The translations under genes were made by a program, and so were the position numbers. Below are positions 8,786 through 29,546 of a stretch of 64,000 nucleotides of DNA, piece after piece (within the stretch, counting starts at the first letter, position 1; every line of letters starts with the position of its first letter). Source of the DNA: Paludibacteraceae bacterium (GTDB lineage Bacteria; Bacillota_I; Bacilli_A; RFN20; CAG-826); assembly GCA_963621535.1 (NCBI GenBank), contig CAVFEQ010000003.1:5926-69925 (forward strand). Direction: 5' to 3'. The notes beneath the pieces are model-generated. The model saw nothing but the letters and a program-made list of their open reading frames with translations, was not told the DNA's origin and searched no databases.

Positions 8786-9625
8786 CTAATTCTTTTTGAT
8801 GTTCCTGGCTTTGCTCGGGGTCATGCCCGTGGTCTTTAAGAAAAGCTTATAGAAATAGGATAGATTTGTGTAACCAACAAAGTCGCAGATTTCCTCTACG
8901 GTATAGTCCGTCCTTTGCAATAGATAATTGGCGTAGTTGATTTTCTGTTTGTTGAAGTAATCCGTCATGGTCATATGGAAGGCTTTTTTAAAAGATCGAC
9001 GGATATAATCCGGAGTAAAAGCGATATCCTTGATCAACTCGGAGCAATCGTATTTGAAGTTGTCAGAAGTCGACAAACGCGTGGCTATATTATTCAGCCA
9101 GTTGGGAATGGCCGGGCTTGATTCCTTAAGGTTATAGGACACCAGCAAGTTCACTAAATAAGTCACCAGCATTTTTGCCGCTAAAGCGTATTCTTTGGTG
9201 TTCGGGTTTAAGAATAAAGACGGAGCCAGGCTTTCAATAGAATAGATTTCCTCACTCGAAAAACGAATTTTCCGATTGTATTTATCGCTTGTTATGTCCT
9301 GGAAAAGAGTCGGCGAGAAGAAGTCGCAAACCCCTTTAAAGTAAGGCGTCGAAATCAAAATATCGCGCCTAAGAAACGACCCGTCGTCACGTTTATAGAA
9401 ACCATGGACGTCGCTAGGAATCAAAAGGCGGGCATCTCCTCTTTTCAGTTGCAGCCTTTCTCCATTGAACTCTTCGTCACCGCCGCCATCGTAAACATAA
9501 AAGATCTCAATGTAAGTGTGACGATGGAGCGGCACCCTTTCATTTTGGGCGCTCTGCGTGAATACGGGAGCCTCATTTTGAACCGTGCACTTTAAGCCCA
9601 GGACGATAACTTCGTTGTTTTCCAT
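8786..9625 (-). CDS. AraC/XylS family transcriptional regulator (cupin N-domain plus HTH)
   Basis: 279 aa. C-terminal AraC-type double HTH (ICDFVGYTNLSYFYKLFLKTTGMTPSKAR). Divergent from surface-protein gene A. Confidence 0.85.
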   Translation of the reverse strand: MENNEVIVLGLKCTVQNEAPVFTQSAQNERVPLHRHTYIEIFYVYDGGGDEEFNGERLQLKRGDARLLIPSDVHGFYKRDDGSFLRRDILISTPYFKGVCDFFSPTLFQDITSDKYNRKIRFSSEEIYSIESLAPSLFLNPNTKEYALAAKMLVTYLVNLLVSYNLKESSPAIPNWLNNIATRLSTSDNFKYDCSELIKDIAFTPDYIRRSFKKAFHMTMTDYFNKQKINYANYLLQRTDYTVEEICDFVGYTNLSYFYKLFLKTTGMTPSKARNIKKN

Positions 9626-9793
9626 GTAACTAAAGTATCACCCAAAAAGGGTTTATCCAAAGAAAATTGGTCGTTCTAGAACATTTTCGATGCGCTTTAG
9701 TTCATTTTTATGACCAATGTAAGCGCTTTATAATTTGACTAATCAATTTTATTTAGGCCGTCCTATTGGGCGGCCAGTTAAGGAGAAATGCCT

Positions 9794-11164
9794 ATGATGA
9801 GCAAGAAAGCGAGCAAGCGCCTGCTTCTGGCGGGGCTTTGCGCCGCCGGGGCCCTCAGCGCCGCCCTCGGGGCCGCGCGTTGGGCGGAGACAGTCCCCGC
9901 CTTCGCCGAATCGTCTTTGACCGAGACCACGATCTCTTTGACCGGCGTGCAGATCAGGGCAGGCCAGCTGGTCCTGCTCTCGGATTCCTACAGCAGCGTG
10001 GCTACCAACGACAACGTCGAGAACGGCGCCGCCAACAGCGACCTCTCCGGAATCAGGCTCTACACTGTCAAAGACGGGTCCTTCGTGGAGAACTCGATCA
10101 CGTGGACGGGTATCATGAACTCGATATGGGGTCAGGCCGGTGGCTTCGTCACCTTCCCCGAGTTCAACAACGGTCTCGACGGCGAGAAGGTCTACAAGGC
10201 GTTCGTCCCGGGGGGCACGAAGATCGCCGTCTCATCGACGGAGGCCTTCGTCGTCGACAAGGACTACACCTTCTTCAACAAGAACTACGGGAACACGGGG
10301 GACGCTTTCTTTTGGACCACCACCCCGTACCTGCCCTACACAAACGTCTGCCCGGAGCTCTCCCTGACCGGCGTCCAGATGCGCTGTGTCGATATTACGA
10401 ACGACAATTACAACTTCCTAGTCCTGATCTCCAGTTCGCACGAAGGGACGATCGCCAACGCGGACCTTGAGAACGGGCTGGCTTGCAGCGACCTCTCCGG
10501 GATCAGGCTCTACACCGTTGGTTCAGACGGCGAGCTCGTGGGGAACGCGATCACACCGAACCACCTCGCCCAAAACTGGTGGGGCCAGCCCGGCGCCTTC
10601 ATCGCCTTCAACGAATACAGCAAAGGGGTGGATGGGTCGAGCGTCTACAAGATCTACGTGCCGAAGGGCACGAAGCTCTTCCTCGCCGACGCGGAAAAAG
10701 GCCAGACCTACACCGTTGACAAGGACTACACCTTTTACAACCTCAATTACGGAGACGAATCGAAAAAGACCGGATCCTTCGATTGGACCAGCAACGGAGA
10801 GAGTTGGGATGTTGAGGCTTTTGTTAATAATTATATGCATCCAGAAATAGTCGATACTGAATCTGGTGCGGGCGCTTGCTTGGGAGAAGGCGGCTATTAC
10901 GCCAAAGCCAAAGCCGCTTACGACAAGCTTTCAGATGTTGCCAAGAACCTCTTCGACACCGGTTCTGCCTACGCCGCTTATAAGCAGCGTTTCGATGCTT
11001 GGGCTACCGCAAACGGGGATGTCGCCAACAAGTCTGGCGTTCTCTCTTTGCTTTCTAAAAACGGCAGCAGCGACACCCTTGGCATTACTGTTGTTGCTAT
11101 TGCCGCAGGAATTACCGCATTGGCTGCTTCCTTGCTCGTTTTTTATAAGAAAAAGCATCAATAA
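9794..11164 (+). CDS. membrane-anchored cell-surface repeat protein, paralog A
   Basis: RBS AAGGAGA sits 7 nt before ATG 9794 (MMSKKASKR...). The signal peptide is followed by two ~150-aa repeats (SLTGVQxR...SDLSGIRLYTV...QPGGF...KGTKIAVSST..VDKDYTFYN.NYG) and a C-terminal TM helix plus KKK tail. No LPXTG. About 60% GC. Confidence 0.8.
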   Translation: MMSKKASKRLLLAGLCAAGALSAALGAARWAETVPAFAESSLTETTISLTGVQIRAGQLVLLSDSYSSVATNDNVENGAANSDLSGIRLYTVKDGSFVENSITWTGIMNSIWGQAGGFVTFPEFNNGLDGEKVYKAFVPGGTKIAVSSTEAFVVDKDYTFFNKNYGNTGDAFFWTTTPYLPYTNVCPELSLTGVQMRCVDITNDNYNFLVLISSSHEGTIANADLENGLACSDLSGIRLYTVGSDGELVGNAITPNHLAQNWWGQPGAFIAFNEYSKGVDGSSVYKIYVPKGTKLFLADAEKGQTYTVDKDYTFYNLNYGDESKKTGSFDWTSNGESWDVEAFVNNYMHPEIVDTESGAGACLGEGGYYAKAKAAYDKLSDVAKNLFDTGSAYAAYKQRFDAWATANGDVANKSGVLSLLSKNGSSDTLGITVVAIAAGITALAASLLVFYKKKHQ

Positions 11165-11601
11165 TCTTACAAAGGTGCTTCTTGCCCCGGGCTTACCGGG
11201 GCTTTTGATTTTGAGAACTAGGCTCAATCGCCATTATGAAATCATCCGTTTGGATAACACCCATGCGACTTCAAAAAACCTTCTATCCGAAAACCGAAGG
11301 AAGCAGAACAACTTTTAAAACGCATCCGGTTCTCTTCTGTTATTTTAGAGTGTTGAAACGTTATTGAACGGAGACTTTTTGTGTATGGAGACATGAGGAA
11401 CTTTTGAAGTCAAAAAGACGGCCGCTCAAGACCGTCGACGGCCTTTGAAATAAAAGCCAAAAGATTTTAAATTGGTTAAAAAGTCGTTATAGGACATTTT
11501 CGATGCGCTTTAGTTCATTTTTATCGATGATGTAAGCGCTTTATAATCTACTAAATCAATTTTAGGCCGTCCCGGTGGCGGCCAGTTAAGGAGAAAAGCC
11601 T

Positions 11602-13953
11602 ATGATGAGCAAGAAAGCGAGCAAGCGCGTGCTTCTGGCGGGGCTTTGCGCCGCCGGGGCCCTCGGCGCCGCCCTCGGGGCCGCGCGCTGGGCGGAAACA
11701 GTCCCCGCCTCCGCCGAATCGTCTTTGACCGAGACCGAGATCTCTTTGACCGGCATCCAGCTTAGGGCGCTGAACCTCGACAGCCCACGGTACACCTATC
11801 TGGTCCTGCTCTCGCCTTCCTACGCCGAAGTGGCCGCCAACGAAGAAGTCACGGACGGCTTAGCCAATAGCGACCTCTCCGGGATCAGGCTCTACACCGT
11901 CGACGAGGACGGGGAGCTCGCGGGGAAGACGATCACGCCCAACCACATCGAGACCACAAAATGGACACAGCCCGGCGGCTTCGTCGCCTTCAACGAGTTC
12001 AAGAATGGCCTCGACGGTGAGAAGGTCTACAAGGCGTTCATCCCAAAGGGCACGAAGATCGCCGTCTCATCGACGCAGGCCTTCGTCGTCGACAAGGACT
12101 ACACCTTCTTCAACAAGAACTACGGGAACGCGGAAGCTAAGCTTGAATCCTTTGCTTGGGCCGCCACTCCCTGCGCCCCCTACACAGACGTCTGCCCGGA
12201 GCTCTCCCTGACCGGCGTCCAGATGCGCTGCCTGGACGGCGTCACCACGAATGACTATTACAACTATCTCGTCCTGATCTCCAGTTCGCACGAAGGGATG
12301 ATCAGCGCCGAAAACCTCGAGAACGGGCTGCTCTATAGCGACCTCTCCGGGATCAGGCTCTACACCGTTGGTTCAGACGGCGAGCTCGTGGGGAACGCGA
12401 TCACACCGAACCACCTCGCCCAAAACTGGTGGGGCCAGCCCGGCGCCTTCATCGCCTTCAACGAATACAGCAAAGGGGTGGATGGGTCGAGCGTCTACAA
12501 GATCTACGTGCCGAAGGGCACGAAGCTCTTCCTCGCCGACGCGGAGAAAGGCCAAGTCTACTCCGTCGACCAGGACTACGCCTTCTACAACGTCAATTAT
12601 AGGAATGAGGAGAAAAAGGGCGAATCCTTGGATTGGTGCCCAACGCCCAGCACGCTACCTACTTTCGAGGAGACCGAGATCTCTTTGACCGGCATCCAGC
12701 TTAGGGCGCCAGGCCTCGAAAGCCCATGGTACACCTATCTGGTCCTGCTCTCGCCTTCCTACGCCGAAGTGGCCGCAAACGAAGAAGTCGCAAGCGGCTT
12801 GGCCAATAGCGACCTCTCCGGGATCAGGCTCTACACCGTCGACGAGGACGGTGAGCTCGTGGGGAACGCGATCACGCCCAACCACATCGAGACCACGAAA
12901 TGGGGCCAGCCCGGCGGCTTCATCGGTTTCGACGAGTTCAAGGACGGCCTCGACGGCGAGAAGGTCTACAAGGCGTTCATCCCAAAGGGCACGAAGATCG
13001 CCGTCTCCTCGACGCAGGCCTTCGTCATTGACAGAGACTACACCTTCTACAACACGAACTATGGGAATGAGAAAGCGAAGCTCGAGTCCTTCTCCTGGCA
13101 GGAAACATCTCTGCCCTACGAAGTGGAAAATACAGGCTCCATACACATTAGGGGCGTCACCAACCAATCCGACGGGGATAGCCGTTGGCTAATCGTCTAT
13201 CTTGACGATAAACAATATCCAGAAACCAACAAGGACGGGACTTTCTACGATGCGCTTGGGCTAAGCAATGTTCTCGACAAGATTTACCTCTATTCTTCTA
13301 GCGACATCAGCAAAGAACCCATCAAACTGAGGGATATCTTCACGGGCTTTATCACTCTTGGCCAGTTTAGTTCCAAAGACGCCTTGGGCTTCACCATTAA
13401 AAACGACGAAAGCGTGAATGGGACCAATCTTTACGCGGTGAGCATCGAAGAAGGCTGCGAGATTCCTCTTGAAGAAGACGGGGCCTACACCAAACGCACC
13501 GTTGCTTCCAAAGTCACGTTCTTGAACAACAACTATGGCAAGAGCGGCGATATCCCAGGGGAGACAGGCAAAGACAAACGCACCTACGAAGATTGGTCCA
13601 TTGATTGGACCAAGGGCGCCTTCCTGACTTACACGGTTGTTGGAGCGGATTTAAGCTTCCAAAAAGTTTGCCTGCCCGTTGGCTCGCAAATCGATGCGTC
13701 TTCCTTCGCCTTAGACGGTTACGAAGTGACGATCCAAGACAATCTTGGCTACACCTACTACGAGCAGATCATCGTTCCTGAAAGTGATGCGGTGATCACC
13801 TTGACCTATAGCAAGAAAACGATCGAGCCTGAGGAAACGCCAAAAGAATCCTCTTCTAACTGGGTTGTATGGGCTTTTGTTGGGGTCGGAGCCGCGCTCG
13901 GCGCGGGTCTAGTTGCCGTCTTGGTGGTAGTCATCAAGAAAAAGAAGGCGTAA
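11602..13953 (+). CDS. membrane-anchored cell-surface repeat protein, paralog B
   Basis: 783 aa. Signal peptide nearly identical to paralog A. Three repeats, with an A-type repeat at 11740-12200 and again at 12680-13130 flanking a B-type repeat at 12200-12670. These are followed by a unique ~250-aa lower-GC domain and a C-terminal TM plus KKKK tail. Confidence 0.8.
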   Translation: MMSKKASKRVLLAGLCAAGALGAALGAARWAETVPASAESSLTETEISLTGIQLRALNLDSPRYTYLVLLSPSYAEVAANEEVTDGLANSDLSGIRLYTVDEDGELAGKTITPNHIETTKWTQPGGFVAFNEFKNGLDGEKVYKAFIPKGTKIAVSSTQAFVVDKDYTFFNKNYGNAEAKLESFAWAATPCAPYTDVCPELSLTGVQMRCLDGVTTNDYYNYLVLISSSHEGMISAENLENGLLYSDLSGIRLYTVGSDGELVGNAITPNHLAQNWWGQPGAFIAFNEYSKGVDGSSVYKIYVPKGTKLFLADAEKGQVYSVDQDYAFYNVNYRNEEKKGESLDWCPTPSTLPTFEETEISLTGIQLRAPGLESPWYTYLVLLSPSYAEVAANEEVASGLANSDLSGIRLYTVDEDGELVGNAITPNHIETTKWGQPGGFIGFDEFKDGLDGEKVYKAFIPKGTKIAVSSTQAFVIDRDYTFYNTNYGNEKAKLESFSWQETSLPYEVENTGSIHIRGVTNQSDGDSRWLIVYLDDKQYPETNKDGTFYDALGLSNVLDKIYLYSSSDISKEPIKLRDIFTGFITLGQFSSKDALGFTIKNDESVNGTNLYAVSIEEGCEIPLEEDGAYTKRTVASKVTFLNNNYGKSGDIPGETGKDKRTYEDWSIDWTKGAFLTYTVVGADLSFQKVCLPVGSQIDASSFALDGYEVTIQDNLGYTYYEQIIVPESDAVITLTYSKKTIEPEETPKESSSNWVVWAFVGVGAALGAGLVAVLVVVIKKKKA

Positions 13954-13961
13954 GGAAAGGG

Positions 13962-16469
13962 ATGGTTATGAACATGAAAAACAACAAATTCGGTAAACGC
14001 ATTTACTTTGTCGCCCTTTTGCTCCCCTGCATCTGCGCCTGTTCCAACTCCGGAAGCAAAGGAGGGGACGAGCCGCTTGCTGTCTATGAAGGCAAGGACT
14101 TCCATTTCTCTTCCAGCAAAGGCGATGACCTTGATTGCCTTAACGAACTCAATAAGCGGATGCTCCGCTATGACGAAGACACGCGGGTCGGGGATATCGA
14201 GATTCCTGAAGGGGTCGCGTTCAACATGGGTTGGGAGACTTCAGCCCTTGTTTGGCATAACGCCACCGAGGAAGGGGTCGGCAAAGACTGCTTCTCACCC
14301 ATTTACAGCTTCCTCCAAAATGCCGGGCAAGATGATTACGGCTATGTTTACGACCTAAGCCTCTTCCGCGAATCCAGTTTTCAAGTCAACAACTCAGGGC
14401 TTTGGAACCTCCCTCAGGGATGGCCTTTCCCCTATTGGAAAACCTCCGTCGACAATCTTCTCACCGATTCCGCGGATTACGACAACGTCCATTTCACGAC
14501 CTTCGAATTTGACTCGGCCAACGAACCAACGAGCAAAAACTGGGAATGCGAGAACGGGAAGGCGGAGATTGGCTACGACGGCTATATGAACCTCTCTTTG
14601 GATTCCTCCATCGAAAAAGGGAAATCCTTGACCGTCACGAACACCCGCTTAAGCGACTACCTTCGCCTGTGCGGAGGCATCGATACCACGCACGCCTCCT
14701 TCATTGAGATCGACCTTGATTTTTCTTCCACGAATCTCGACGATTTCTATTTCCTTTGGCAGACAAAAGAGGGGGGCGACACTTGGTATCGCGCCTCAAG
14801 CAAAGAATACATGACGGTCTATAACGATTCTTTCGCTTCTTATGGCGCCCACACCTACTGGCCGATGTACCTTGATGAGAACTGGGCCGGCAAGACCGTG
14901 ACTTCCATCGGAATCGAGTTCGCCCCGAAAGAAGGCGAAGCGTTGAACCTAAGCAACGCGCGCATCAATTACATTCGCCCCGCCTACGATACCCGTCAGC
15001 CACAATTCACATTCCAGTGGCTCGACTCTTTCTATGATTACGTCGTCTACAAAAGGGATCTCGACGCTTTGACGAAGCTCATGCCCAAGGCGCGGAGGGC
15101 GCTTCTTAATCTCACCCACTGCCTCAAAGGCGAATCCGGCCTTTTGAATTTGGACTACCTTTATGGCCATAACGGCATCGGGACCACGATCAACGAGGAT
15201 GGCACGCTGGAGATTCATCCTGGGCAAGGGATCGGCTCAAGCTATTGGGACGTCCTTGCTCTCCCTACCATCAACCTTGAATCCAACGCCTACTTCTATG
15301 GCTGCGTCAAGAAGATGGCCGTCTTGGAGAAAGCCTGCGAAGATTACAACCTGGACATCGAAGGCACTTCCATCAAAAACCGTTCCCTAGGCCAGGAGAA
15401 AGTCGTCTACGACTACACTTCCAGCAAGCTCACCGAGCTCGCCTCGCTCATCAAAGCGACGTTTGAAAAAGACATAAAACCCGCGCAGCAAGCCGATGGA
15501 AGCTGGGTGAATGAGGGAGGGCTTTGGAACCCTGCGACCGGGCGTTTCGCCTTGGGGGTGAGGGAAAGCGATGGCGCTATCCTCGACCATGGCTACATCT
15601 ACTTCAATGAGCAAGCGATCTGCGCAGGCTTAGGGAGTTCCTCCCAGCGCCTTTCGACGATGAATTGGATCGACGGGAAAAGGATCGTTGAAGGAGATGA
15701 TTCCACCGGAGAGGACATCTATTTCTACGAATTCGCCCCCCGCTTCACAACCAAAGACAACAGCGAGCAAATCAATTTCACTTTGGTGAACACTTTCTTT
15801 GAAGAGGGCGGCTATTACGATGAATACGGCAGCCTTTTCTCTAGGCAAGTCCAATGCGGAGGGGCCGTCCTCTGCTGGAGCTATTATGACCTCCTCGCCC
15901 GCGCAGAGGTTCTTGGAAGAGAGAACGCCTTAAGCCGCCTTGAAGGAGTCGCCTCTTGGTATAAGAAAGTCCAAGAGGGAACAAGCGGGACAGGCACGGA
16001 TTTCTTCGCCGACTATTATGAGATCTTAGAAAGCGAGGATTGGAAAGGATATTACGTCCTGCAAAACGCGGAGGGCGGAGGCCCTGGCGCACTTGGCCTA
16101 GACGGGGAATTCCTTGAAAACAGCCTCTTCGCGCGCTCGCTTCCTAGCGCAATCCTCGGGATGGAGGTCGATTCCTTCGATCATCTAAGCTTCTGCAACG
16201 ATTCTTTAGAGGGGCTAAACGCGATCCGCGCGGACAACCTTAAATTCGGAAACGCGACTTATAGCGTGAAAATGGACGCCACCTCCTTTGAAATCTCTAA
16301 CCTCAAAGGAGGCGTGTTCGAGAAAACAAAGCTTTCCCTTCGCTTCAAAAAGCCTGGTGGCAGTTTCACCGTGGAAGTCGATGGGAAAATAAGCACGGAT
16401 TATGCAGTTGAAGGCGACTATATCTCTATGGAGCTGCCTTTAACGAATATCGTGGTAAACGTAAAATAA
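13962..16469 (+). CDS. large predicted lipoprotein of unknown family (possible extracellular glycan-active enzyme)
   Basis: Start chosen at ATG 13962, after AGGAAAGGG. The N-terminus MVMNMKNNKFGKRIYFVALLLPCICACSNSG looks like a lipoprotein signal. No family motif recognised by eye. It is the first gene of the carbohydrate operon. Confidence 0.6.
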   Translation: MVMNMKNNKFGKRIYFVALLLPCICACSNSGSKGGDEPLAVYEGKDFHFSSSKGDDLDCLNELNKRMLRYDEDTRVGDIEIPEGVAFNMGWETSALVWHNATEEGVGKDCFSPIYSFLQNAGQDDYGYVYDLSLFRESSFQVNNSGLWNLPQGWPFPYWKTSVDNLLTDSADYDNVHFTTFEFDSANEPTSKNWECENGKAEIGYDGYMNLSLDSSIEKGKSLTVTNTRLSDYLRLCGGIDTTHASFIEIDLDFSSTNLDDFYFLWQTKEGGDTWYRASSKEYMTVYNDSFASYGAHTYWPMYLDENWAGKTVTSIGIEFAPKEGEALNLSNARINYIRPAYDTRQPQFTFQWLDSFYDYVVYKRDLDALTKLMPKARRALLNLTHCLKGESGLLNLDYLYGHNGIGTTINEDGTLEIHPGQGIGSSYWDVLALPTINLESNAYFYGCVKKMAVLEKACEDYNLDIEGTSIKNRSLGQEKVVYDYTSSKLTELASLIKATFEKDIKPAQQADGSWVNEGGLWNPATGRFALGVRESDGAILDHGYIYFNEQAICAGLGSSSQRLSTMNWIDGKRIVEGDDSTGEDIYFYEFAPRFTTKDNSEQINFTLVNTFFEEGGYYDEYGSLFSRQVQCGGAVLCWSYYDLLARAEVLGRENALSRLEGVASWYKKVQEGTSGTGTDFFADYYEILESEDWKGYYVLQNAEGGGPGALGLDGEFLENSLFARSLPSAILGMEVDSFDHLSFCNDSLEGLNAIRADNLKFGNATYSVKMDATSFEISNLKGGVFEKTKLSLRFKKPGGSFTVEVDGKISTDYAVEGDYISMELPLTNIVVNVK

Positions 16470-16485: not shown

Positions 16486-17850
16486 ATGAACAAACAAAGC
16501 AAAATCATTCTTCTTAGCTCTACTCTTTTGGCAACGGCCCTTACCGTTGCTAGCTGCGGAGGAGATCAGAATACCGGCGATAGCGCCAACCCGGCGGTGA
16601 ACCTCAAAATCGCCGTCACCAGCGATAAGACCGAGACCAGCATCGCAGAAGCCCTCATCAAGGGCTTCAACCAGACCGAAGGCAACAAGAACGTCAAAAT
16701 CTCCGTCGTGAAAATCACCCAGGGCTATGACAGCTACATCCAGAAGAACTGGGGCAAGTCCACGATGGCCGATCTCATCTCCGTTTACGACTACAACGCC
16801 GAATACTGGACTTCAATGAACCTCTTCAAGCCCCTTTCCACCTACATGGAAAGAGATGGCGTTAACGAGGAAGATTACGTCTCCTCCATGTTCAACTTAG
16901 GGAAATCCGGGACCGATGACACTTATTATTGGCTCCCTCGCGATTACAACAAAGTCGTCGTTTGCTACAACACCGAGATCTTTGAGGCGGCCGGGATCAG
17001 CAAGCCTAGCGACAACTGGACGATGGAGGATTTCGAGCAGACCTGCAAGACGCTTTTGGAGAAGAGCGAAGAAATCAAGAAGGTCACCGGCAAGTACGAC
17101 TTCTGGCCGGCGGAGATGAACCTCAAATGGACCGCGGTTTATTATCCCTACATCAAATCCTATGGCGGCGGCTTCCTTGCGGACGATGGGACTTGCTTCA
17201 AAAACCCGGACATCGTGAAATCCTCCCTTCTCAAACTTTTGAAATACGCAGACCCGACCGACAGCGCGAACTATCCCGGTCTTGGCTATAGCAACCCCAT
17301 CGGGCAAGCCGACGATCAGGCCTGCTTCGTCAATAAAAAAGCGGCGATGATTTTCACGGTGCGCCCGAACATCCAGAGCTTTGCAAAGAATCTGAATAAC
17401 AACATCGACTTCGTTTCCTTGCCCTCAATCACCGATAACGACGGAAAGACATCGTATATCGGCTCGGGCTGCTCAGGGTATACCATCACAACCAACTGCA
17501 GCGACGATAAAGTCGAGGCCGCTTGGCGTTTCTTGAAATACATCGTTTCGAAGGAAGGCCAGGAAGTTCTTGGCAAAACCGGCAGCGGCATCCCCGTGCT
17601 TTCCTCTCTTCTAAACGATTCCTCTTCCGCATGGAAAAACTTCATCTCGAAGGATCTCAATCACGACGCCTTCACCAAGTTCCCTGAGCGCGACCTCTCC
17701 ATGAATTACGTTCATGGCTTCAAAGCCAACAAGCAGCTCACCATTTATAAGGAATTCAAAGACAGTCTGATCTTCTCCATGTACAACAGCGAAGACCGCG
17801 ACGAGGAATTCGCTGCCTTCAAAGCCAAAATTGACGCGCTGATTGCCTAA
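16486..17850 (+). CDS. ABC transporter extracellular solute-binding lipoprotein (CUT1 sugar family)
   Basis: 454 aa. Lipobox LTVASCGG. Length and composition typical of a sugar-binding protein. Followed by MalF/MalG-like permeases. Confidence 0.85.
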   Translation: MNKQSKIILLSSTLLATALTVASCGGDQNTGDSANPAVNLKIAVTSDKTETSIAEALIKGFNQTEGNKNVKISVVKITQGYDSYIQKNWGKSTMADLISVYDYNAEYWTSMNLFKPLSTYMERDGVNEEDYVSSMFNLGKSGTDDTYYWLPRDYNKVVVCYNTEIFEAAGISKPSDNWTMEDFEQTCKTLLEKSEEIKKVTGKYDFWPAEMNLKWTAVYYPYIKSYGGGFLADDGTCFKNPDIVKSSLLKLLKYADPTDSANYPGLGYSNPIGQADDQACFVNKKAAMIFTVRPNIQSFAKNLNNNIDFVSLPSITDNDGKTSYIGSGCSGYTITTNCSDDKVEAAWRFLKYIVSKEGQEVLGKTGSGIPVLSSLLNDSSSAWKNFISKDLNHDAFTKFPERDLSMNYVHGFKANKQLTIYKEFKDSLIFSMYNSEDRDEEFAAFKAKIDALIA

Positions 17851-17903
17851 AAAGCCTCACCTTCGAAGGCATTCTTCGAAGGTTTTGCCGTGGAAGGAGG
17901 GTT

Positions 17904-18815
17904 ATGAAAGCCTCTACGAAGAAAATAATAAAAAACAACGTTACAGGATACTTGCTTCTGCTGCCGTTTTTAGTTGGGCTAATCGGCTTCACGGCCTATC
18001 CCTTGCTTTTGGCGTTATGGCAGAGCTTTTTCAAAGACTATAGCCCCGTGACGGGATATGACTTCGCCGACTTCGGATTCGAGAATTACATCAACGCATT
18101 TACGAGCCAAAGCGTGCAGCGTTCCATTTGTCTCACTCTTGTCTATGCGGCGATTACGATCCCCTTTGGGCTCGTCGTCTCCTTCCTCCTCGCCTATTTG
18201 CTCAGTTTGCCAATCAAAGGCACTAAAATATTCCGCGTTTTGGTCTACTTGCCAGCGTTGATCCCTAGCATCGTCTCCGCTTCTATCTACAAGTACATGT
18301 TCGGTCCTGACGAATTCGGGCTGATCAATCAGCTTCTTATTGGCCTAGGAAGAGAGCCGAGCAAGCTTTTGGAATCGCCTGAGCAAAGCATCGCGGTGCT
18401 GAGCTTATTCTTAACCGGCATCTTCGGCTACGGCTGCAGCTCGCCGATGTGGATCGCAGGGTTCAACAGCGTTCCAACTGACGTCTACGAAGCGGCGTTC
18501 GTCGATGGATCTTCCAAACCGAGAACCTTTTTCAAAATCACCATCCCCCTCATGGGAAGATTCATTTTCTTCCAACTGCTTGGCTCCCTCATCGGGACTT
18601 TGCAGATCGGGGAATCCGTCCTCATGCTTTCAAGCAGAGGAGGCTTCGGAGAGAACCTCAACTTCTATGGCTTGATGATCTATAACCAAACCACAGACGG
18701 CATCGGGAACTATGGCTTTGCAAGCGCTTTGTCCTATCTCCTCTTCATTGTGATCGCCTTGCTTTCCATCGCGACGTTCCAAGCGAATAAAAAAACCTAC
18801 ATGGAGGGCATTTGA
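17904..18815 (+). CDS. ABC sugar transporter permease (MalF/UgpA-like)
   Basis: 303 aa. Six TMs and an EAA-like loop region (EAAFVDGSS). Confidence 0.85.
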   Translation: MKASTKKIIKNNVTGYLLLLPFLVGLIGFTAYPLLLALWQSFFKDYSPVTGYDFADFGFENYINAFTSQSVQRSICLTLVYAAITIPFGLVVSFLLAYLLSLPIKGTKIFRVLVYLPALIPSIVSASIYKYMFGPDEFGLINQLLIGLGREPSKLLESPEQSIAVLSLFLTGIFGYGCSSPMWIAGFNSVPTDVYEAAFVDGSSKPRTFFKITIPLMGRFIFFQLLGSLIGTLQIGESVLMLSSRGGFGENLNFYGLMIYNQTTDGIGNYGFASALSYLLFIVIALLSIATFQANKKTYMEGI

Positions 18816-18816
18816 G

Positions 18817-19665
18817 ATGGAGCATTTCAAAATGAAATTTTGGGAGAAGGCCATCATTTACGTTATTTTGACCTTCTTCTCCCTCTTGGCTATCGTCCCC
18901 ACCTTTGTTCTGGTTTCTAGAAGTTTTTTCTCCCTTGATGAGATCACTAGCCTTGGGGCGGGGGTCTTCCCTCATAGTCCCACTCTCGACGCCTATGTGA
19001 CGGCCTTTACCGACGAGGGTTTCTTGACGTCTTTAAAAAACACTCTTCTTACCTGTCTATGCGCGGTCATCGGGGTGCCTTTAACCGCCTTCATGGCCGC
19101 TTACGCCTTCACGCGCATCAAATTCTTCGGCCGGAGATTTTGGTTCCTCTTGGGGCTTGGCACCATCATGATCCCAAGCATCTTGCTCTTGATTCCCGTC
19201 TATTCGATCTTCGTGGATATGGGATGGACCAACACCCTGCTGCCCCTTACCGTGACTTATTTCTTCGGCGGAGGCATCATGAACATCTTCCTCATCATGC
19301 AGTTCATACGCGGATTGCCAAAAGACATGTATGAGGCCGCCGAAATCGACGGCGCAGGGACGTTGCGTCAGATGTTCCAGCTTACCTTGCCTTTGGTGAA
19401 GCCTGTGGTTGCTTATGCTGCCGTCACCGCCTTTATCGGCGCCTGGAATGACGTCATGCGCCCATTGATGTACAACGATTTATCCGAATATTACACGGTC
19501 AACCAATACATCTACATCACTTATCTGCAGCAAACCGCGACGATGGATGCGCTGCCAAACGTCCAAATGGCCCTTGGGGTCATCCTCATGATTCCGATGC
19601 TCATCATTTTCATCGTCTTCCAAAAGCAACTGATTGAGGGCATCCGCCTCTCGGGAGAGAAATAA
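18817..19665 (+). CDS. ABC sugar transporter permease (MalG/UgpE-like)
   Basis: 282 aa. EAA motif (YEAAEIDGAGTLRQMFQLTLPL). 2-nt gap to the previous gene. Confidence 0.85.
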   Translation: MEHFKMKFWEKAIIYVILTFFSLLAIVPTFVLVSRSFFSLDEITSLGAGVFPHSPTLDAYVTAFTDEGFLTSLKNTLLTCLCAVIGVPLTAFMAAYAFTRIKFFGRRFWFLLGLGTIMIPSILLLIPVYSIFVDMGWTNTLLPLTVTYFFGGGIMNIFLIMQFIRGLPKDMYEAAEIDGAGTLRQMFQLTLPLVKPVVAYAAVTAFIGAWNDVMRPLMYNDLSEYYTVNQYIYITYLQQTATMDALPNVQMALGVILMIPMLIIFIVFQKQLIEGIRLSGEK

Positions 19666-19667: not shown

Positions 19668-20951
19668 ATGAAAAAGAAAATCGTCGTTGTTGGCTGCGGG
19701 GACCGCGCCACCGTATATTGTCAAGAAGGGGTGAATAACCTTAAAGGAATGGAAGTTGTCGCCTGCGTCGATCCGAATGAGGAAAGGCTAAGGTTCATGC
19801 ACGAACATTTCGCTGTGCCTTCTTCGATGTGTTTCCATAGCATCGAAGAAGTGCTGAAGCTAGGAAAAATCGGGGATGCGGTGATTAATGGCACGATGGA
19901 TACCTTGCACCTGCAGACCGCACTGCCTTTCTTAAAGCAAGGCTACCACATGCTTTTGGAGAAGCCTCTTACCAACAACAAAGAGGATCTTCTTTTGCTT
20001 AAAAAGGTGGCTGAAGAAAATAACGTCAAACTGATGACCTGCCACGTCCTCCGTTACGCGCCCTTCTATCGCAAAATCAAGGAAATGATCCTCAATGGAG
20101 AAATCGGCAGCATCCAAAGCATCGCCACTTCCGAACGCGTCGGCGCCTATCATTCCTCGGTGAGCTATCTCCGAGGCAAGTGGAGCAAGCAAAGCGAATG
20201 CGGCTCCTCCTTGCTTTTAGCAAAATGCTGCCACGATCTCGATTTGCTTTGCTGGCTCAATAACAGCACCAAGCCCGTTGAGGTCTATAGCAACGGAGGG
20301 AGAACCTATTTCACAAAGGAAAACGCCCCAAAGGGCAGCGGAAACCGCTGCCTTGTGGACTGCCCAAAGGAAATCAGAGACAAGTGCATCTACGAAGCGG
20401 AAGCGATGTATATCAAAAACACCGTTTTGCCTTGGTATCCTTGGCAGTGCACAGGGAAAAATTACGAGGACGTCACCGAGGAAGAGAAATACGAATCCTT
20501 GCGGACGAACAATCCGCACGGACGTTGCATCTTCAAATGCGACGGCGATTTGCTTGACCACCAAAACGTCGTGGTGAAATTCGCAAACGGAAGCACCGCG
20601 AGCCATCTTCTGGTTTTAGGCGCGATGAAGCCGACGCGGACGATCTTCATCACCGGGACGGAAGGCGAAATCGAAGGCGATCCTAGCGGGGAACTCATTC
20701 TCCGCAAATTCGACAAGAATAGCGATTTCTTCACCGAGACTAAGGTGAGCTTCGAAGACAAACAAGGCGAGACCGGCGGGCATTATGGGGGCGACAGGGG
20801 CCTTATCGCCGACTTCCTGAACGTTCTTTCAGGAGTTGTCCCGTCAATCTCTTGCACCGCGATTGAAGATTCCATCAATGGGCATTGCCTGGTCTATGGG
20901 GCCGACCAATCCATAGCCAGCCTCAAGCCTGAGAACATCGAAACCGAATGA
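19668..20951 (+). CDS. Gfo/Idh/MocA family NAD(P)-dependent oxidoreductase
   Basis: 427 aa. N-terminal Rossmann KIVVVGCGDRA and a central EKP motif (LLEKPLTNN). Cys-rich insert CLVDCPKEIRDKCIYEAE. Overlaps the next gene by 4 nt. Confidence 0.8.
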   Translation: MKKKIVVVGCGDRATVYCQEGVNNLKGMEVVACVDPNEERLRFMHEHFAVPSSMCFHSIEEVLKLGKIGDAVINGTMDTLHLQTALPFLKQGYHMLLEKPLTNNKEDLLLLKKVAEENNVKLMTCHVLRYAPFYRKIKEMILNGEIGSIQSIATSERVGAYHSSVSYLRGKWSKQSECGSSLLLAKCCHDLDLLCWLNNSTKPVEVYSNGGRTYFTKENAPKGSGNRCLVDCPKEIRDKCIYEAEAMYIKNTVLPWYPWQCTGKNYEDVTEEEKYESLRTNNPHGRCIFKCDGDLLDHQNVVVKFANGSTASHLLVLGAMKPTRTIFITGTEGEIEGDPSGELILRKFDKNSDFFTETKVSFEDKQGETGGHYGGDRGLIADFLNVLSGVVPSISCTAIEDSINGHCLVYGADQSIASLKPENIETE

Positions 20952-23140
20952 GTAAAATGAGCAAAGGAAGAATCACGATTCCCACCGATTCCACTTACGT
21001 CGAGGGGACGAAAAAATATATCGAGCTTTGGGGCGCCGACGCGGTGAGAGATTGTGACGGGGTCAGTTTGCCTAAAGACGTGAAGCAATTTGGCACAGAC
21101 GTCTATAAGGCTTATTTCATCGTAAGGGAAGACCACGATTATGCCTTGAAACATAAGGAATATTGGCAGAACGTCGCTTTGATGAGCCAAAGGAAGATTG
21201 CTTATGGAAACGAGCTCGTGATCGATTTGCTGGAGAACACGTTCAAAGACGCCCTCGAGCCCAACGAGACGGATTACCGCAAATGGTGGCAGGTCATCGA
21301 CCGAACGACGGGCCGCATTCACGAAGACTACGACTACCTAGGCTCAGGGAAAGTCCGCATCAATAGCTGCCTCCCCTACCACGAATACACGGTGAACTTC
21401 TTTGCCAGAAACACCTGGGACCCCGTGCAAATCTATAACTATCACGTGAACAATTGGACTTGCCCGAAAGACATCGATCTTGATCCGGTATATCCAGAAG
21501 CGCTTCAGCATATGCTTGAGAGAATGGAACTATGGCTGAAGGCGAATCCCGATGTAACGGTGGTCCGTTTCACTACTTTTTTCTATAACTTCTTCATTGT
21601 GAACGTCACCGGTACCAAGCAACGCATTTGGGACTGGCACTGCTATGCGATGAGCGCCTCCCCCGCGATGTTCGAATTGTTCAAAAAAGAAAAAGGCGTT
21701 GAAATGAGCCTGGAGGATCTAATCGGCGAGGGCTACTATTCCAACCGCTTCGTTATCCCCGGCAAGAAGCAGTTGGCTTACGAAGACTTCGTGGAAGAAA
21801 AATGCGCCGCTTGGGCAAAGCGATTCGTCGATCTGTGCCATAAATACAGCAAGAAAGCCTTGATGTTCGATGGGGATCATCGCGTTGGCGTGGAACCTTA
21901 TTCTCCTTATTTCCCCTCGATTGGGCTAGACGGGGTGGTCGGGGCTCCAAGCGGAGCCATCTACATCAGCCAAGTGGCGAATATCAAAGGAGTGAAATTC
22001 ACCGAAGGTAGGCTGAATCCTTATTTCTTCCCGAATGAATGCCCTAGCGACGAGAAAGGGAAGCAAATCCTTCTTTCTTGCTGGAACAACATGCGGAGAG
22101 GGCTGCTGAAGAAATCCATTGATCGCATTGGTTTTGGAGGATACCTCAAGCAAATCGAGAACTACCCTTTGTTGACTGCGGCAATTAAAGACGTATGCGA
22201 CGAATTCAGGGGCATCGCGGATGCTCTTGGCCATTCCTCTTGCTCTAGCAAAGGGAGGATCGCCGTGCTCAGTTACAGGGGCAGGCGCGATTCTTGGATG
22301 ATGAATGGGACGTTCGTCGACGATGCGAGGCAAGGGGGCTGCTACTACCATTCCCTTTTCGACGCTTTGGCGGTTTTGCCTTTTGAGGTCGAGTTCATTT
22401 CCTTTGAAGAAGCTTCCAAAACGGATTTAAGCACATACGACTGCCTTCTTTCTTGCGGGGTGCCGAATACGAGCTTCGCCGGAGGCAAGGCATGGGAGAA
22501 CCCTGAGCTTGTTTCCAATATCAGGAGATACGTGCACGAAGGGGGCGCCTTCTTTGGGGTCGGGGAGCCGACCGCCAGCCAACATCAGGGAAGGTTTTTC
22601 CAGTTAAGCGACGTGCTTGGCGTAGAGAAGGAATGCGAGTTCACCCATTTTGAGAAACGCAACCCATTCAAAACGTTAGAAAATCACTGGATTAAGGAGG
22701 ACGTGGATATGTCTTTGGTTGGTTATAACCGTTTCCAAAGAAACGTTTACCCCCTCACCGCGACGGTTTTGGCCAACGAATTCGATTGGGAATATCCAGA
22801 AGGCCAGCAAAATGCCGCGAACGTGCATTTTGCGATCAATGAGTATGGAAAGGGGAGAAGCGTCTATCTTTCTGGAATCACCTGTAACGACGAGACCATT
22901 CGTCTCTTATATCGCGCTTTCCTTTGGGCGATGAAGAAAGAAGACGAGACGAAGCGGCTTTATGCGTTAGCGAGCTCCGTGGATGTTTTCTATTATGAAG
23001 AGAAGCGGATGTACGCTTTGTACAACGATTCCGAAAAAGAAGTCGCGACAAGTTACTATGACCTGCAAGGAAATTTGAAGAACGTTTTCTTGAAAGGAAA
23101 AGAGATTGTCTGGCTGGACGAAAAGGGGCTGAAATTATGA
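20948..23140 (+). CDS. GH112 beta-galactoside phosphorylase (lacto-N-biose/galacto-N-biose or Gal-beta1,4-L-Rha phosphorylase family)
   Basis: 730 aa. Blocks recalled from Bifidobacterium LnpA are conserved: ELWGADAVRDCDG, WQVIDRTTGRI, HEYTVNFFA, WDPVQIYNY, VVRFTTFFYNF, GRFFQLSDVLGVEKE. Confidence 0.8.
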   Translation: MSKMSKGRITIPTDSTYVEGTKKYIELWGADAVRDCDGVSLPKDVKQFGTDVYKAYFIVREDHDYALKHKEYWQNVALMSQRKIAYGNELVIDLLENTFKDALEPNETDYRKWWQVIDRTTGRIHEDYDYLGSGKVRINSCLPYHEYTVNFFARNTWDPVQIYNYHVNNWTCPKDIDLDPVYPEALQHMLERMELWLKANPDVTVVRFTTFFYNFFIVNVTGTKQRIWDWHCYAMSASPAMFELFKKEKGVEMSLEDLIGEGYYSNRFVIPGKKQLAYEDFVEEKCAAWAKRFVDLCHKYSKKALMFDGDHRVGVEPYSPYFPSIGLDGVVGAPSGAIYISQVANIKGVKFTEGRLNPYFFPNECPSDEKGKQILLSCWNNMRRGLLKKSIDRIGFGGYLKQIENYPLLTAAIKDVCDEFRGIADALGHSSCSSKGRIAVLSYRGRRDSWMMNGTFVDDARQGGCYYHSLFDALAVLPFEVEFISFEEASKTDLSTYDCLLSCGVPNTSFAGGKAWENPELVSNIRRYVHEGGAFFGVGEPTASQHQGRFFQLSDVLGVEKECEFTHFEKRNPFKTLENHWIKEDVDMSLVGYNRFQRNVYPLTATVLANEFDWEYPEGQQNAANVHFAINEYGKGRSVYLSGITCNDETIRLLYRAFLWAMKKEDETKRLYALASSVDVFYYEEKRMYALYNDSEKEVATSYYDLQGNLKNVFLKGKEIVWLDEKGLKL

Positions 23141-24744
23141 GAAAGTGCAATTACACAAAGGTCATTGATAGTCATTTGGTGAAGGACGTGGATAGATTAT
23201 CCGCGAATTTTACCTCCGGAGAGCATATTTTCGTCGCCCCGGTTTGCTCCATCCAAAAGGGCGGTTATTTGATCCTAGATTTCGGCAAGGAGATTTGCGG
23301 AAGGGTCCATGTGGTCTTCGGCTTCTCGGAAAATTCAAAAATCAGAATCAGGACCGGGGAGAGCGTCGATGAAGCCTGCGCAGAGCTCAATGAGAAGAAC
23401 GCCGGGAATCACCATTCGTTGAGGGATGCTGTTTATCCCGTGGTCTTTTGGAGCGATTTCTCTACAAGCGAGACCGGCTTCCGTTTCGTGCGGATCGATG
23501 TTCTAGGCGAAGAGAAGGTGGATATAACCTCGATCTACGCCGAAGAAAGTGAGAACGGGCTTACCAAAAGGGGGTCGTTCCTTTCAAGCGATAAAAGGTT
23601 GAACGACATCTATGAGGTGGCTTCTAGGACCATTGAACTTTGCGTTCGTCCCGAAGCGATTTGGGACGGCGTGAAAAGGGACCGCGTGGCCTGGATTGGC
23701 GATTTCTATCCCGAACTGTTAAGCGCATATCTCATCTATGGGAACATCCCTCAGATGGAGAGCATGCTCGATTACGTTTCTTCCTTCGAAGGAAAATGGG
23801 TCAATAGCATCCCCGCCTATTCCGCTTGGTGGATCGTTTGCTTTGAGAAGTATTACCAGCTAAGTGGAAATGAAGCCTATCTGCAAAAGATGCTTCATTA
23901 TTTAAAAGACATCGTAAAGGAATTCTCCAAGATTATTTTCCCTGGCGGGAAGGTGTCTTTCGCCAATTCCACGCTTGGCTTCTTTGATGGGAACGAGCTT
24001 TTCCTTGATTGGCCAACCCACACGACCCCTGACGCGGAAATTGGCTGGCGTTACCTTCTTCTTTACGCGATGAAACGGGCGAGCGTTCTTCTTAGCTCCT
24101 TAGGCGAGGACGCGTCTTTAGCGGATAACATCATCAAGAACCTTAATGAATATTCCTATCCAGCGTCTTCCTTTAAGCAAGTGACCGCTTTAGGAGTGCT
24201 TGCTGGGAAAATCGACCCCAAGGAGGCCGCGCCTTTATTGAAAGAGGGCGGCGCGAAGGGCATGACCTGCTTCCTTAGCTTCGCTATTGTTGAAGCGCTA
24301 AGCTTGGCCAATGAAGGCGACGAGGCGCTTAATCTTATTAAAGAATACTATGGGGCGATGCTGGATTTGGGCGCGACAACATTTTGGGAAGATTTCGATG
24401 TCGATTGGTTAAATGACCATCCAGATGGCGTTTCCGCGCTACCGAACGCTAAGACCAAAAACATCCATGCGGATTATGGCAAATTTTGTTATTTAGGGCT
24501 GCGCCATAGCCTGTGCCACGGCTGGTCGACGGGCTTCCTTGATTTTTACGCATCCTATCTTCTTGGGGTCGTTGCTATAGAACCTGGCTACAAATCGATT
24601 AAAGTCGAACCGCATTTATGCGGACTGAGTTTCGTTGAGGGCACCATACCGACCCCTTATGGTGACATATGGGTCCATCACGAGAATAAAAAAGGCCAGA
24701 TTGAGACCTGCTTGAAGTGCCCGGAAGGCGTTGTGTTAAAATGA
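23137..24744 (+). CDS. six-hairpin glycoside hydrolase, alpha-L-rhamnosidase-like (GH78 catalytic and C-terminal domains only)
   Basis: 535 aa. DGVKRDRVAWIGD and SLCHGWSTGF motifs resemble the GH78 (alpha/alpha)6 catalytic domain. The usual N-terminal beta-sandwich domains are absent. 4-nt overlap on both sides. Confidence 0.55.
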   Translation: MRKCNYTKVIDSHLVKDVDRLSANFTSGEHIFVAPVCSIQKGGYLILDFGKEICGRVHVVFGFSENSKIRIRTGESVDEACAELNEKNAGNHHSLRDAVYPVVFWSDFSTSETGFRFVRIDVLGEEKVDITSIYAEESENGLTKRGSFLSSDKRLNDIYEVASRTIELCVRPEAIWDGVKRDRVAWIGDFYPELLSAYLIYGNIPQMESMLDYVSSFEGKWVNSIPAYSAWWIVCFEKYYQLSGNEAYLQKMLHYLKDIVKEFSKIIFPGGKVSFANSTLGFFDGNELFLDWPTHTTPDAEIGWRYLLLYAMKRASVLLSSLGEDASLADNIIKNLNEYSYPASSFKQVTALGVLAGKIDPKEAAPLLKEGGAKGMTCFLSFAIVEALSLANEGDEALNLIKEYYGAMLDLGATTFWEDFDVDWLNDHPDGVSALPNAKTKNIHADYGKFCYLGLRHSLCHGWSTGFLDFYASYLLGVVAIEPGYKSIKVEPHLCGLSFVEGTIPTPYGDIWVHHENKKGQIETCLKCPEGVVLK

Positions 24745-28565: not shown

Positions 28566-29546
28566 ATGATTATTTCCAGAGCGCCATTCCGAGTTTCCTT
28601 CTGCGGTGGAGGGAGCGATATACCCTCTTTCTATGAGAAGTACACGGGGTGCGTATTGTCGACCACGATACGCAAATACGTCTATATCACGATAAACAAG
28701 GCCTTTAACAAAGACTCCATAACGTTGAAGTACTCCCAAACGGAAGTCGTGAACGACCCTTCCCAAATTCAGCACCGAATTTTCAAACAAGTTCTGAGCG
28801 ATTTTGGCACGAAAGGCGTCGAAATCACCTCAATGGCGGACATTCCTGCCGGAACCGGCCTTGGCTCATCCAGCTCATTCACGGTCGCCCTTATAAAAGC
28901 TCTCTACGCTTTTAATTCCAACTCCGTTTCGGCCTATAAAGTGGCGAAAGAAGCGTGTGATGTAGAGATTAATCAATTGGGAAACCCCATTGGGAAGCAA
29001 GATCAATTCGCCGCGGCCTTCGGCGGTATTCGTTACTATGAGTTCGAGCCCGACGGATTCGTGAAAGTCGAGCCGATCATCATGAGCAAGTCAGCGCGAA
29101 ATCACCTAGAAGCCTCGATGATGCTCTTTTACACTGGGGCGTTGCATGATGCGAACAAAATCCTTGGCGAGGAGAGCAAAAACCTAGCCTCCGCCAACGA
29201 AAAAATAAACGCAACGAAAACCCTTTGCGACATGACGAAAGAACTGAAAATCAGTCTTGAGGAAAATGACGTAGACGCCATAGGCCCATGCCTAAAAAGA
29301 GGTTGGGAAATCAAGAAAAGCTTGGCTTCAGGCATCACTAGTCCCCTCATCGATCATTGCTATGAACTCGGGATTAAGGCCGGCGCAACAGGAGGCAAAC
29401 TATTAGGTGCCGGCGGAGGCGGATTTTTGCTTTTCTATGTCCCTGATTCTTCAAAAAGGGCGCAAATCCGGGCTGCTTTGCACGATTTAAAGGAAATGCC
29501 GTTCGAATTAGACCAATCGGGCGTAAGCATTATTTATACAGAATGA
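28566..29546 (+). CDS. hddA: D-glycero-alpha-D-manno-heptose 7-phosphate kinase (GHMP kinase)
   Basis: 326 aa. GHMP motif PAGTGLGSSSS. Glycine-rich C-terminal GATGGKLLGAGGGGF. First gene of the heptose trio. Confidence 0.75.
   Translation: MIISRAPFRVSFCGGGSDIPSFYEKYTGCVLSTTIRKYVYITINKAFNKDSITLKYSQTEVVNDPSQIQHRIFKQVLSDFGTKGVEITSMADIPAGTGLGSSSSFTVALIKALYAFNSNSVSAYKVAKEACDVEINQLGNPIGKQDQFAAAFGGIRYYEFEPDGFVKVEPIIMSKSARNHLEASMMLFYTGALHDANKILGEESKNLASANEKINATKTLCDMTKELKISLEENDVDAIGPCLKRGWEIKKSLASGITSPLIDHCYELGIKAGATGGKLLGAGGGGFLLFYVPDSSKRAQIRAALHDLKEMPFELDQSGVSIIYTE

Follow-up and report, generated by a model that had tools for sequence, protein, structure and literature searches.

Within a 64,000-nucleotide stretch of a Paludibacteraceae bacterium contig (hereafter the window), two adjacent forward-strand genes, gene A (9794-11164) and gene B (11602-13953), encode proteins built from tandem copies of a single module, and these copies have exchanged sequence by gene conversion, including a recent event from gene B into gene A. 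Gene A specifies a 456-aa protein with a signal peptide, modules A1 and A2, a unique tail (10820-11164) that contains a transmembrane (TM) segment (11078-11146), and a terminal KKKHQ. Gene B, the first gene of an operon, specifies a 783-aa protein with a signal peptide, modules B1 to B3, a TM segment (13861-13935) and a terminal KKKKA. With a hidden Markov model (HMM) built from the copies, the modules were delimited as A1 (9923-10357), A2 (10349-10819), B1 (11731-12201), B2 (12193-12675) and B3 (12670-13131), each of 145-161 aa, giving a module of ~155 aa. Beyond B3, gene B continues with a diverged fourth module-like domain (13120-13596), which the HMM matches weakly, and a small beta domain (13618-13818), all of these features lying on the forward strand. 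An earlier sequence-only reading had described two adjacent membrane-anchored proteins with two and three module copies and no LPXTG motif, a description that the open reading frames (ORFs) and the HMM uphold with the addition of the weak fourth domain of B.

The repeat proteins and their module

Both proteins start with MMSKKASKR, followed by a hydrophobic leader rich in alanine and glycine. The gene A ORF opens at 9788 or 9794; the ATG at 9794 lies 8 nt 3' of an AAGGAG and is the likely start, because the ATG at 9788 is without a counterpart in the gene B copy. Neither protein carries an LPXTG motif despite the hydrophobic segment and KKK tail, the Pfam Gram_pos_anchor model matches only at E=0.19 and over the TM segment alone, and no SLH or CWB2 domains were found in either protein with Pfam. 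Judged by their sequences, A and B are on balance likely to be non-catalytic surface proteins, exported and held in the membrane through the C-terminal helix and lysine tail. Since gene A is followed by an intrinsic terminator (11184-11212, forward strand; GCCCCGG-loop-CCGGGGC plus a T run), it forms its own transcription unit; no terminator lies between gene B and the next gene. A homology search with the unique 121-aa tail of gene A gave no matches, and no Rfam families occur in or between the two genes. Several ORFs overlap the repeats in other frames or on the opposite strand (9766-10470, 10467-10850, 12368-12688, 12655-13167 on the reverse strand and 12851-13192), as is expected of by-products of GC-rich third positions, and they are not genes.

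No Pfam or NCBIfam model matched A, B or any of 42 individual modules, and a PDB sequence search with the module profile gave no match. AlphaFold2, run on the 42-module alignment, returned a ten-strand beta-sandwich with a predicted local distance difference test (pLDDT) score of 94.7 and a predicted template modeling (pTM) score of 0.90. The PDB, the one collection against which the novelty of the fold was judged, holds no close solved neighbor of this model; no solved structure of a carbohydrate-binding module (CBM) matches it, and neither the signature nor the fold of a cohesin was found in the modules. A sub-threshold Pfam match of gene B to HA70_C, a sugar-binding hemagglutinin domain (E 2.5e-4), was rejected, only 2 of the 42 modules matching it and those at E values of at least 0.038. 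The earlier statement that the module matches no recognized domain is therefore borne out by the Pfam, NCBIfam and PDB searches together with the structure prediction. The family is also rare: a word-indexed search of 5.8 billion proteins gave 16, and the module profile reached 93 clusters at E<=1e-3 in a set of 1.84 billion representatives. The unmatched fold and this rarity show the module to be a previously undescribed ~155-aa beta-sandwich domain.

Family members hold one to nine modules each, with near-invariant residues at Q10, R12, Y57, Y102, K103, Y129 and N133. About half of them share the C-terminal hydrophobic segment and basic tail, often with GC[NSG]G before it; the cysteine of this ending is missing from the window proteins. 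The full ending of GC[NSG]G, hydrophobic segment and KKK tail is seen in P0002, P0007, P0009, P0011 and others, and in these relatives it may be a C-terminal sorting or lipidation signal. At the loci compared outside the window species there is a single repeat gene of five or six modules, and in relatives the first and last modules keep position-specific orthology. All five window modules resemble the variable central type of these relatives, to which they are 35-51% identical, and the unique C-terminal domain is 45-52% identical.

Gene conversion and third-position GC

The five modules fall into two types, alpha (A1, B1, B3) and beta (A2, B2), with 60-64% nucleotide identity between types. 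B1 is a mosaic, its 5' two-thirds resembling B3 and its 3' third A1; that the first and third repeats of B share long identical runs, as had been noticed before, is plain from the 91% identity over 300 nt (11731-12030 against 12670-12969), with a longest exact run of 50 nt. Between the genes, positions 10487-10695 in A2 match 12337-12545 in B2 exactly, both on the forward strand. The ~210-bp identity of the sequence-only reading is thus an exact tract of 209 nt, and its coordinates in B, given 13-15 nt too high, needed correction. The A2/B2 alignment spans 457 nt with 55 mismatches, and none of 20,000 permutations of these reached a run of 209 nt, the longest being 98 nt.

We compared three further assemblies of the same species, which diverge by ~2% from the window in flanking genes; orthologs of gene B were seen on contigs L001, L010 and L003. 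In one of them, the metagenome-assembled genome (MAG) GCA_963587045.1, gene B lies on L001, and an ortholog of gene A with the same tail, found through the protein of the divergent AraC-family gene, adjoins that gene on L011, which independently confirms the position of gene A and its tail next to AraC. In this strain the tract is not perfect: 25 of its 209 sites distinguish A2 from B2, and A and B share no exact run longer than 54 nt. Set against the copies of this strain, the window A2 departs from A2 at 21 tract sites (10%; 0.8-3.9% in the rest of gene A) but from B2 at only 5. Because the window A2 is nearer to the sister B2 than to the sister A2, B2 must have overwritten A2 after the strains split, with B2 as donor and A2 as acceptor.

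Other strains show other events. The B1 of L001 has diverged by 8.1% from the window B1, compared with 2.0-2.8% for B2, B3, the unique part and the downstream genes, and at 24 of its 38 differing sites the base equals that of B3; at five sites, the B1 of each strain matches its own B3. In L010, B2 carries 12 clustered changes in the tract region, several of which match alpha-type modules. A sister species has variants with 6, 5, 5 and 4 modules, proteins whose two ends are 94-98% identical and which differ by the clean loss of one or two modules, in register, at three different places. The longest exact matches between modules are 209 and 147 nt in the window species and at most 34 nt in seven other lineages. 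The strain comparisons thus show directly the concerted evolution or recombinational variation suggested earlier, with module-number variants in the sister species, and gene conversion among the modules, including the recent B2-to-A2 event, is as good as certain. Elsewhere in the family, P0008 and P0010 have ends that are 98-99% identical around an internal ~270 aa that is only 24-54% identical, a module swap between close strains.

The duplication extends upstream of the modules. The ~250 bp of promoter, 5' untranslated region (UTR) and signal peptide said to be nearly identical before both genes align as 9670-9931 and 11483-11739, in which 234 of 262 columns (89%) are identical, with 94% identity in the coding part and 85% in the promoter part. 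The promoter/operator block itself (9670-9751, and 11483-11564 before gene B, both on the forward strand) forms a direct repeat family, D6, whose copies are 85% identical, and the second copy is 98.9% conserved in L001; by BLAST, the region 5' of gene B is 98.9% identical between L001 and the window over 181 nt. A 22-nt core is exact in both copies, for a chance expectation of 0 matches. Copy 1 has two GCGCTTTA boxes (9692-9699 and 9723-9730) 31 nt apart, the second overlapping a TATAAT at 9729-9734, and boxes of the forms GTCG.T.TAGAACATTTT, GTTCATT and ATGTAAGCGCTTTA recur 5' of the homologue at L004, one of the loci from other lineages described below. From this pattern we infer that the duplicated block is probably a conserved operator for the AraC-type regulator. 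A GC-rich 5'UTR hairpin (9756-9775, forward strand; -19.2 kcal/mol, z = -2.7) stands just 5' of the AAGGAG ribosome-binding site (9780-9785), with a second and weaker copy at ~11565-11583 (z = -0.7) whose loop differs; these hairpins may stabilize the mRNA 5' end. No inverted repeats bracket the promoters, and there is therefore no sign of an invertible switch. Positions 1-59 of L001, which lie 5' of the gene B promoter, have no match in the window, so that strains may vary in the region between A and B, or the end of the L001 contig may be unreliable.

Taken together with the relatives, these data suggest a history in which this lineage would have lost the position-specific first and last modules and rebuilt the array from central-type modules. 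A duplication of promoter, leader, signal peptide and first modules would then have created gene A, with its own tail and terminator, and the five modules would now recombine with each other, different strains showing different events.

The recombining part of both genes is also distinct in composition. GC content over the repeats is 0.57-0.62 and in the flanks 0.43-0.52, and at third codon positions (GC3) it reaches 0.82-0.92 in the signal peptide and modules, before dropping to 0.48-0.66 in the 3' parts unique to each gene. The change falls within each gene, at nt 10745 in gene A (0.86 before, 0.49 after; twice the log-likelihood difference, 2dlnL, 67) and at nt 13102 in gene B (0.84 before, 0.60 after; 2dlnL 52); six control genes gave a 2dlnL of 13 or less. 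No other gene of the window exceeds a GC3 of 0.71, the value of ppdK, to which the repeats had been likened for their GC of ~60% and C/G-rich third positions. The composition is as described, but the likeness to ppdK is superficial: at four-fold sites ppdK has C.66, T.24 and G.08, with an NNG share of.45, and the modules have C.55, G.31 and T.08, with an NNG share of.74. Because the GC3 excess stops inside the genes, whose unique parts have the codon usage of ordinary genes, and because the codon pattern is unlike that of ppdK, it is not an expression-linked codon bias. At codon positions 1 and 2 the modules, with 0.42-0.53 GC, are close to the unique 3' parts, with 0.38-0.53, and in seven other lineages module GC3 equals that of the neighboring genes. 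The diverged fourth domain of gene B, which is too different to recombine, has a GC3 of 0.60.

Single-strain third-position changes among three strains, polarized by majority rule, bear on how this composition is kept. In the modules, changes from A/T to G/C (W>S) occurred at 14 of 66 sites (0.212) and the reverse (S>W) at 11 of 290 (0.038), which implies an equilibrium GC3 of 0.85 for an observed 0.81. The corresponding values are 9/107 (0.084) and 10/166 (0.060) in the unique 3' part of B (implied 0.58, observed 0.61), and 105/1127 (0.093) and 150/2173 (0.069) in ~10 kb of downstream genes (implied 0.57, observed 0.66). Relative to pooled backgrounds of 0.092 and 0.068, module W>S changes are 2.3 times the expected number (Poisson P=0.004; 14 changes, partly clustered in events) and S>W changes 0.55 times (P=0.02; 11 changes, likewise partly clustered). 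Counting all codon positions, the derived base is present in another module copy for 20 of 24 W>S and 10 of 21 S>W changes, a comparison partly confounded by the GC-rich paralogs, and the B2-to-A2 event itself added 13 W>S against 5 S>W changes. It appears, then, that the GC-rich state is being maintained and does not decay, which argues against a passively ameliorating foreign segment. GC-biased gene conversion is the leading explanation of module GC3, to which we give an even chance: GC-biased recombination would have raised third positions to ~0.85 G+C in exactly the recombining part, with biased mismatch repair proposed as the cause.

The excess might instead be a relic, if a GC-rich block of signal peptide and modules had come from a GC-richer relative by transfer or recombination and had then been duplicated. 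The four-fold pattern of C.55 and G.31 is what a genome of ~60-65% GC would be expected to give, the boundaries are sharp, a single lineage carries the excess, and the array, with all modules of the central type, has clearly been rebuilt. Yet at codon positions 1 and 2 the modules and the unique parts of A and B have similar GC, the promoter/operator is native, being shared with L004, the modules are about as diverged from their relatives as is the unique C-terminal domain, and no GC-rich homologue was present among the loci examined. Nor do the substitutions appear to decay toward the genome value, with an equilibrium GC3 of 0.85 for the observed 0.81, and we consider such an origin unlikely.

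The glycan locus and its partner enzyme

Genes A and B lie between a regulator gene and genes for glycan uptake and processing. The AraC-family regulator (8786-9625, reverse strand), divergent from gene A, combines a cupin sensor with HTH_18 (Pfam HTH_18 1.4e-16, AraC_binding 7e-07), and its gene holds the same divergent position in L002, L004, L005 and L011. Directly after gene B, a gene for an 835-aa lipoprotein (13962-16469) is the invariable neighbor of the repeat gene. It is followed by an ABC (ATP-binding cassette) sugar importer (16486-19665; Pfam SBP_bac_1 1.5e-21, BPD_transp_1), comprising a lipoprotein solute-binding protein (16486-17850) and permeases (17904-18815 and 18817-19665), and then by cytoplasmic processing genes (19668-24744), which Pfam identifies as a GFO/IDH/MocA oxidoreductase, a glycoside hydrolase family 112 (GH112) enzyme and a GH78-like protein, all on the forward strand. 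The GH112 gene (20948-23140, forward strand) encodes a lacto-N-biose-type phosphorylase matching PDB 2zus/3wfz (E 1e-126), which are structures of the Bifidobacterium longum lacto-N-biose phosphorylase, and the GH78-like six-hairpin protein (23137-24744, forward strand) matches PDB 3cih (E 2e-30). With regulator, transporter and glycan-degrading enzymes together, the locus meets the working definition of a Gram-positive polysaccharide utilization locus (PUL). GH112 enzymes use Gal-beta-1,3-HexNAc as substrate, or in some cases Gal-beta-1,4-L-Rha, and in combination with the GH78-like gene this would point to mucin or human milk oligosaccharide-type glycans, or to pectic or arabinogalactan-type glycans, as the glycan taken up.

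The gene order is conserved well beyond the species. We compared nine loci, from about seven other lineages and same-species strains, with GC contents from 32% to 51%; four were found by a metagenome scan with an alignment of the repeat-protein C-terminal domain. The order AraC, repeat protein, ~830-aa protein, solute-binding protein, two permeases and GFO recurs in L002 (Hadza gut), L004 and L005, and GH112 follows GFO in L002 and L004. In L001 and L010, of the same species as the window, the order is kept from the repeat gene through GH112, and in L006-L009, where the repeat gene and the next ORF were checked, the repeat gene is directly followed by a ~830-aa ORF.

The 835-aa protein has no Pfam, NCBIfam or PDB sequence match. 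It has 64 homologues, two distant ones being annotated with only a GH65 C-terminal domain, and its distant homologues are labelled '[Clostridia bacterium]'. At least 90% of 40 aligned homologues keep cysteine 27, which follows a hydrophobic leader, and the protein is for this reason probably a lipoprotein; it models as an unclassified (alpha/alpha)6-barrel enzyme resembling a glycoside hydrolase or phosphorylase. Within its gene, 392 nt (window 14549-14940, L003 1475-1866) were left unaligned by BLAST between flanks that are 96% identical, and this segment may be an imported or fast-evolving patch.

Modules and enzyme also occur in one chain. In P0047, a protein of 1875 aa, six or seven modules precede a type I dockerin, behind which 760 enzyme-like C-terminal residues align end to end with the 835-aa protein at 27% identity (E 4e-73), and four further clusters (P0025, P0038, P0056, P0079), recognized by the enzyme C-terminal motif only, end in the C terminus of the enzyme, one of them also with a dockerin. 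The module thus occurs as a contiguous non-catalytic unit within enzymes of carbohydrate-active type, as in P0047. Adjacency in some organisms and fusion in others indicate a shared function, and a functional link between the modules and the (alpha/alpha)6 enzyme family is, on this genomic evidence, highly probable. Because the modules stand N-terminal and in cis with a glycosidase, a CBM-like deployment, A and B can be read as detached accessory arrays. By analogy, then, we lean toward a glycan-binding role for the arrays, and the earlier proposal of substrate capture for the glycan-import operon fits both the gene order of the nine loci and the module-enzyme fusions.

On this reading, the arrays would bind the glycan substrate at the cell surface in the manner of a multivalent CBM array or surface glycan-binding protein (SGBP), and the 835-aa lipoprotein enzyme would cut the surface-bound glycan. 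The product would then be imported by the ABC system, and in the cytoplasm the GH112 phosphorylase and the GH78-like enzyme would split it, with the divergent AraC-type regulator controlling the whole set through the operator in the duplicated promoter block.

Other genes of the window were noted in passing. Past the sugar-kinase genes that follow the glycan operon, 28566-31458 encodes a GHMP kinase, a nucleotidyl-transferase/HAD-phosphatase fusion and a SIS-domain isomerase, which from their sequences look like a nucleotide-activated heptose pathway that might glycosylate surface structures. The 42-51 kb region carries dnaA, dnaN, recF, gyrB and gyrA, identified from translations, and the window also has a lipoprotein-type YidC, with jag and rnmV read by eye; this dnaA-dnaN-recF-gyrB-gyrA region with YidC, jag and rnmV we take to be a Bacillota-type arrangement. 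Two genes have GC3 values below the rest of the window, 53846-55219 (AAA_14/DUF4143 ATPase, 0.45) and 62267-63328 (Fic-domain protein, 0.28), and were probably acquired horizontally.

Weighing the reading against known systems

The modules could hold a protein in place of a glycan. As cohesin-like scaffold units binding the 835-aa enzyme or other partners, they would account for a tandem ~150-aa beta-sandwich on an anchored non-catalytic protein beside an enzyme gene, and for the dockerins on some family members. However, the 835-aa enzyme lacks a dockerin and is already lipid-anchored itself, and the fusion proteins place the modules in cis with the enzyme in the style of CBMs, so that we regard a scaffold as improbable. 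Slightly less probable still is that A and B are variable adhesins or decoys, in which recombination is selected for antigenic, phage-receptor or host-binding diversity and the link to the glycan operon is incidental. Strain-specific conversion patches, the swap between P0008 and P0010 and the copy-number variants would fit such a role, as would the many between-strain changes that alter amino acids, but the gene order is kept across lineages of 32-51% GC with repeated fusion to the enzyme family, conversion homogenizes the copies within a genome more than it diversifies them, and the surroundings of the promoters showed no invertible or phase-variable element. That the proteins are abundant, S-layer-like coat proteins whose high GC3 reflects translational selection at very high expression, an idea of the sequence-only reading, we hardly credit, since the bias ends within both genes and leaves the unique parts at background codon usage, unlike ppdK, which favors C and T and avoids G where the modules raise G too, orthologous arrays of seven other lineages lack the excess, SLH and CWB2 domains were not found with Pfam, and a promoter beside an AraC-type regulator suggests induction rather than constitutive mass expression.

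Glycan-capture accessory arrays with ongoing, GC-biased conversion of their modules form the account that we favor, and as a whole we put it at slightly better than even. A number of observations weigh against it. The module belongs to no established CBM family, by sequence or by fold, and most of its near-invariant residues sit in predicted strands and may for that reason be structural. The counts behind the GC bias are small, sites within one event are non-independent, and they come from one lineage only; in addition, the duplicated block shows no GC enrichment in its AT-rich promoter part, and the 3' part of B2 is GC3-rich though no recent conversion is visible there. Finally, the short-read MAG contigs break in or near the repeats (L001, L003, L010, L011), so that direct adjacency of A and B is seen in the window contig only. 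The more far-reaching combination, in which the ectopic conversion is GC-biased, lifting GC3 from ~0.6 to ~0.85 and holding it there, and the repeats found a new CBM family that serves a new (alpha/alpha)6 glycosidase family, is possible, and we advance it tentatively, with less than an even chance of being right in full. The undescribed surface module and the undescribed extracellular (alpha/alpha)6 enzyme would both feed the GH112 phosphorylase pathway, and the locus is a well-defined target in the search, among uncultured gut bacteria of Bacillota type, for a CBM family and a GH family that would both be new, and for their substrate.

Among known systems, A and B are most readily set beside the SusE/SusF-type SGBPs of Bacteroidota and the Gram-positive PULs, as non-catalytic surface proteins of tandem beta-sandwiches whose genes stand with those for a surface glycanase, an importer and a sugar-responsive regulator. 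They differ from SGBPs in having no sequence or close structural kinship with them and in that binding is here predicted; moreover, the anchor is a C-terminal TM helix and not an N-terminal lipid, and uptake is through an ABC importer and not SusC/D. The multi-CBM cellulosomal enzymes of Bacillota resemble those relatives that carry 3-7 modules in cis with the enzyme, some with dockerins, whereas in the window the array is on a separate polypeptide from the enzyme and the module is in no Pfam CBM family. The cohesin repeats of scaffoldins are likewise ~150-aa tandem beta-sandwiches on an anchored non-catalytic protein by enzyme genes, but the modules have no cohesin signature or fold match and the partner enzyme is without a dockerin.

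Concerted evolution by gene conversion is familiar from tufA/tufB in Salmonella and from the Rib/alpha-C repeats of streptococci, with which the window genes share mosaic tracts, strain-specific variants common to copies and in-register changes in copy number. The present case differs in two ways: conversion reaches beyond the modules to the promoter, leader and signal peptide of two tandem genes, and it goes together with a sharp step in GC3 inside each gene. GC-biased gene conversion is known in mammalian multigene families. Its occurrence in bacteria is disputed: it was argued from genome-wide correlations by Lassalle et al. 2015 (PMC4450053), who compared recombining with non-recombining core genes, and is stated as not observed in bacteria in PMC8153448. 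Our data share with PMC4450053 a GC3 raised where recombination occurs and independence from optimal codons, and the polarized changes seem, on small counts, to lean toward W>S. A term search of PMC4450053 found no mention of paralogs or ectopic conversion, and the contrast here lies within genes and is linked to ectopic conversion among tandem repeats, as seen in one lineage on small counts. At this locus a part that recombines and one that does not meet within one gene, sister strains show which copy was donor, which was acceptor and when conversion took place, and the substitution spectrum, on small counts, predicts the observed GC3. Surface glycan-capture proteins and the concerted evolution of repeats are thus known in kind, and what is new at this locus is an undescribed module family and an undescribed glycosidase family.

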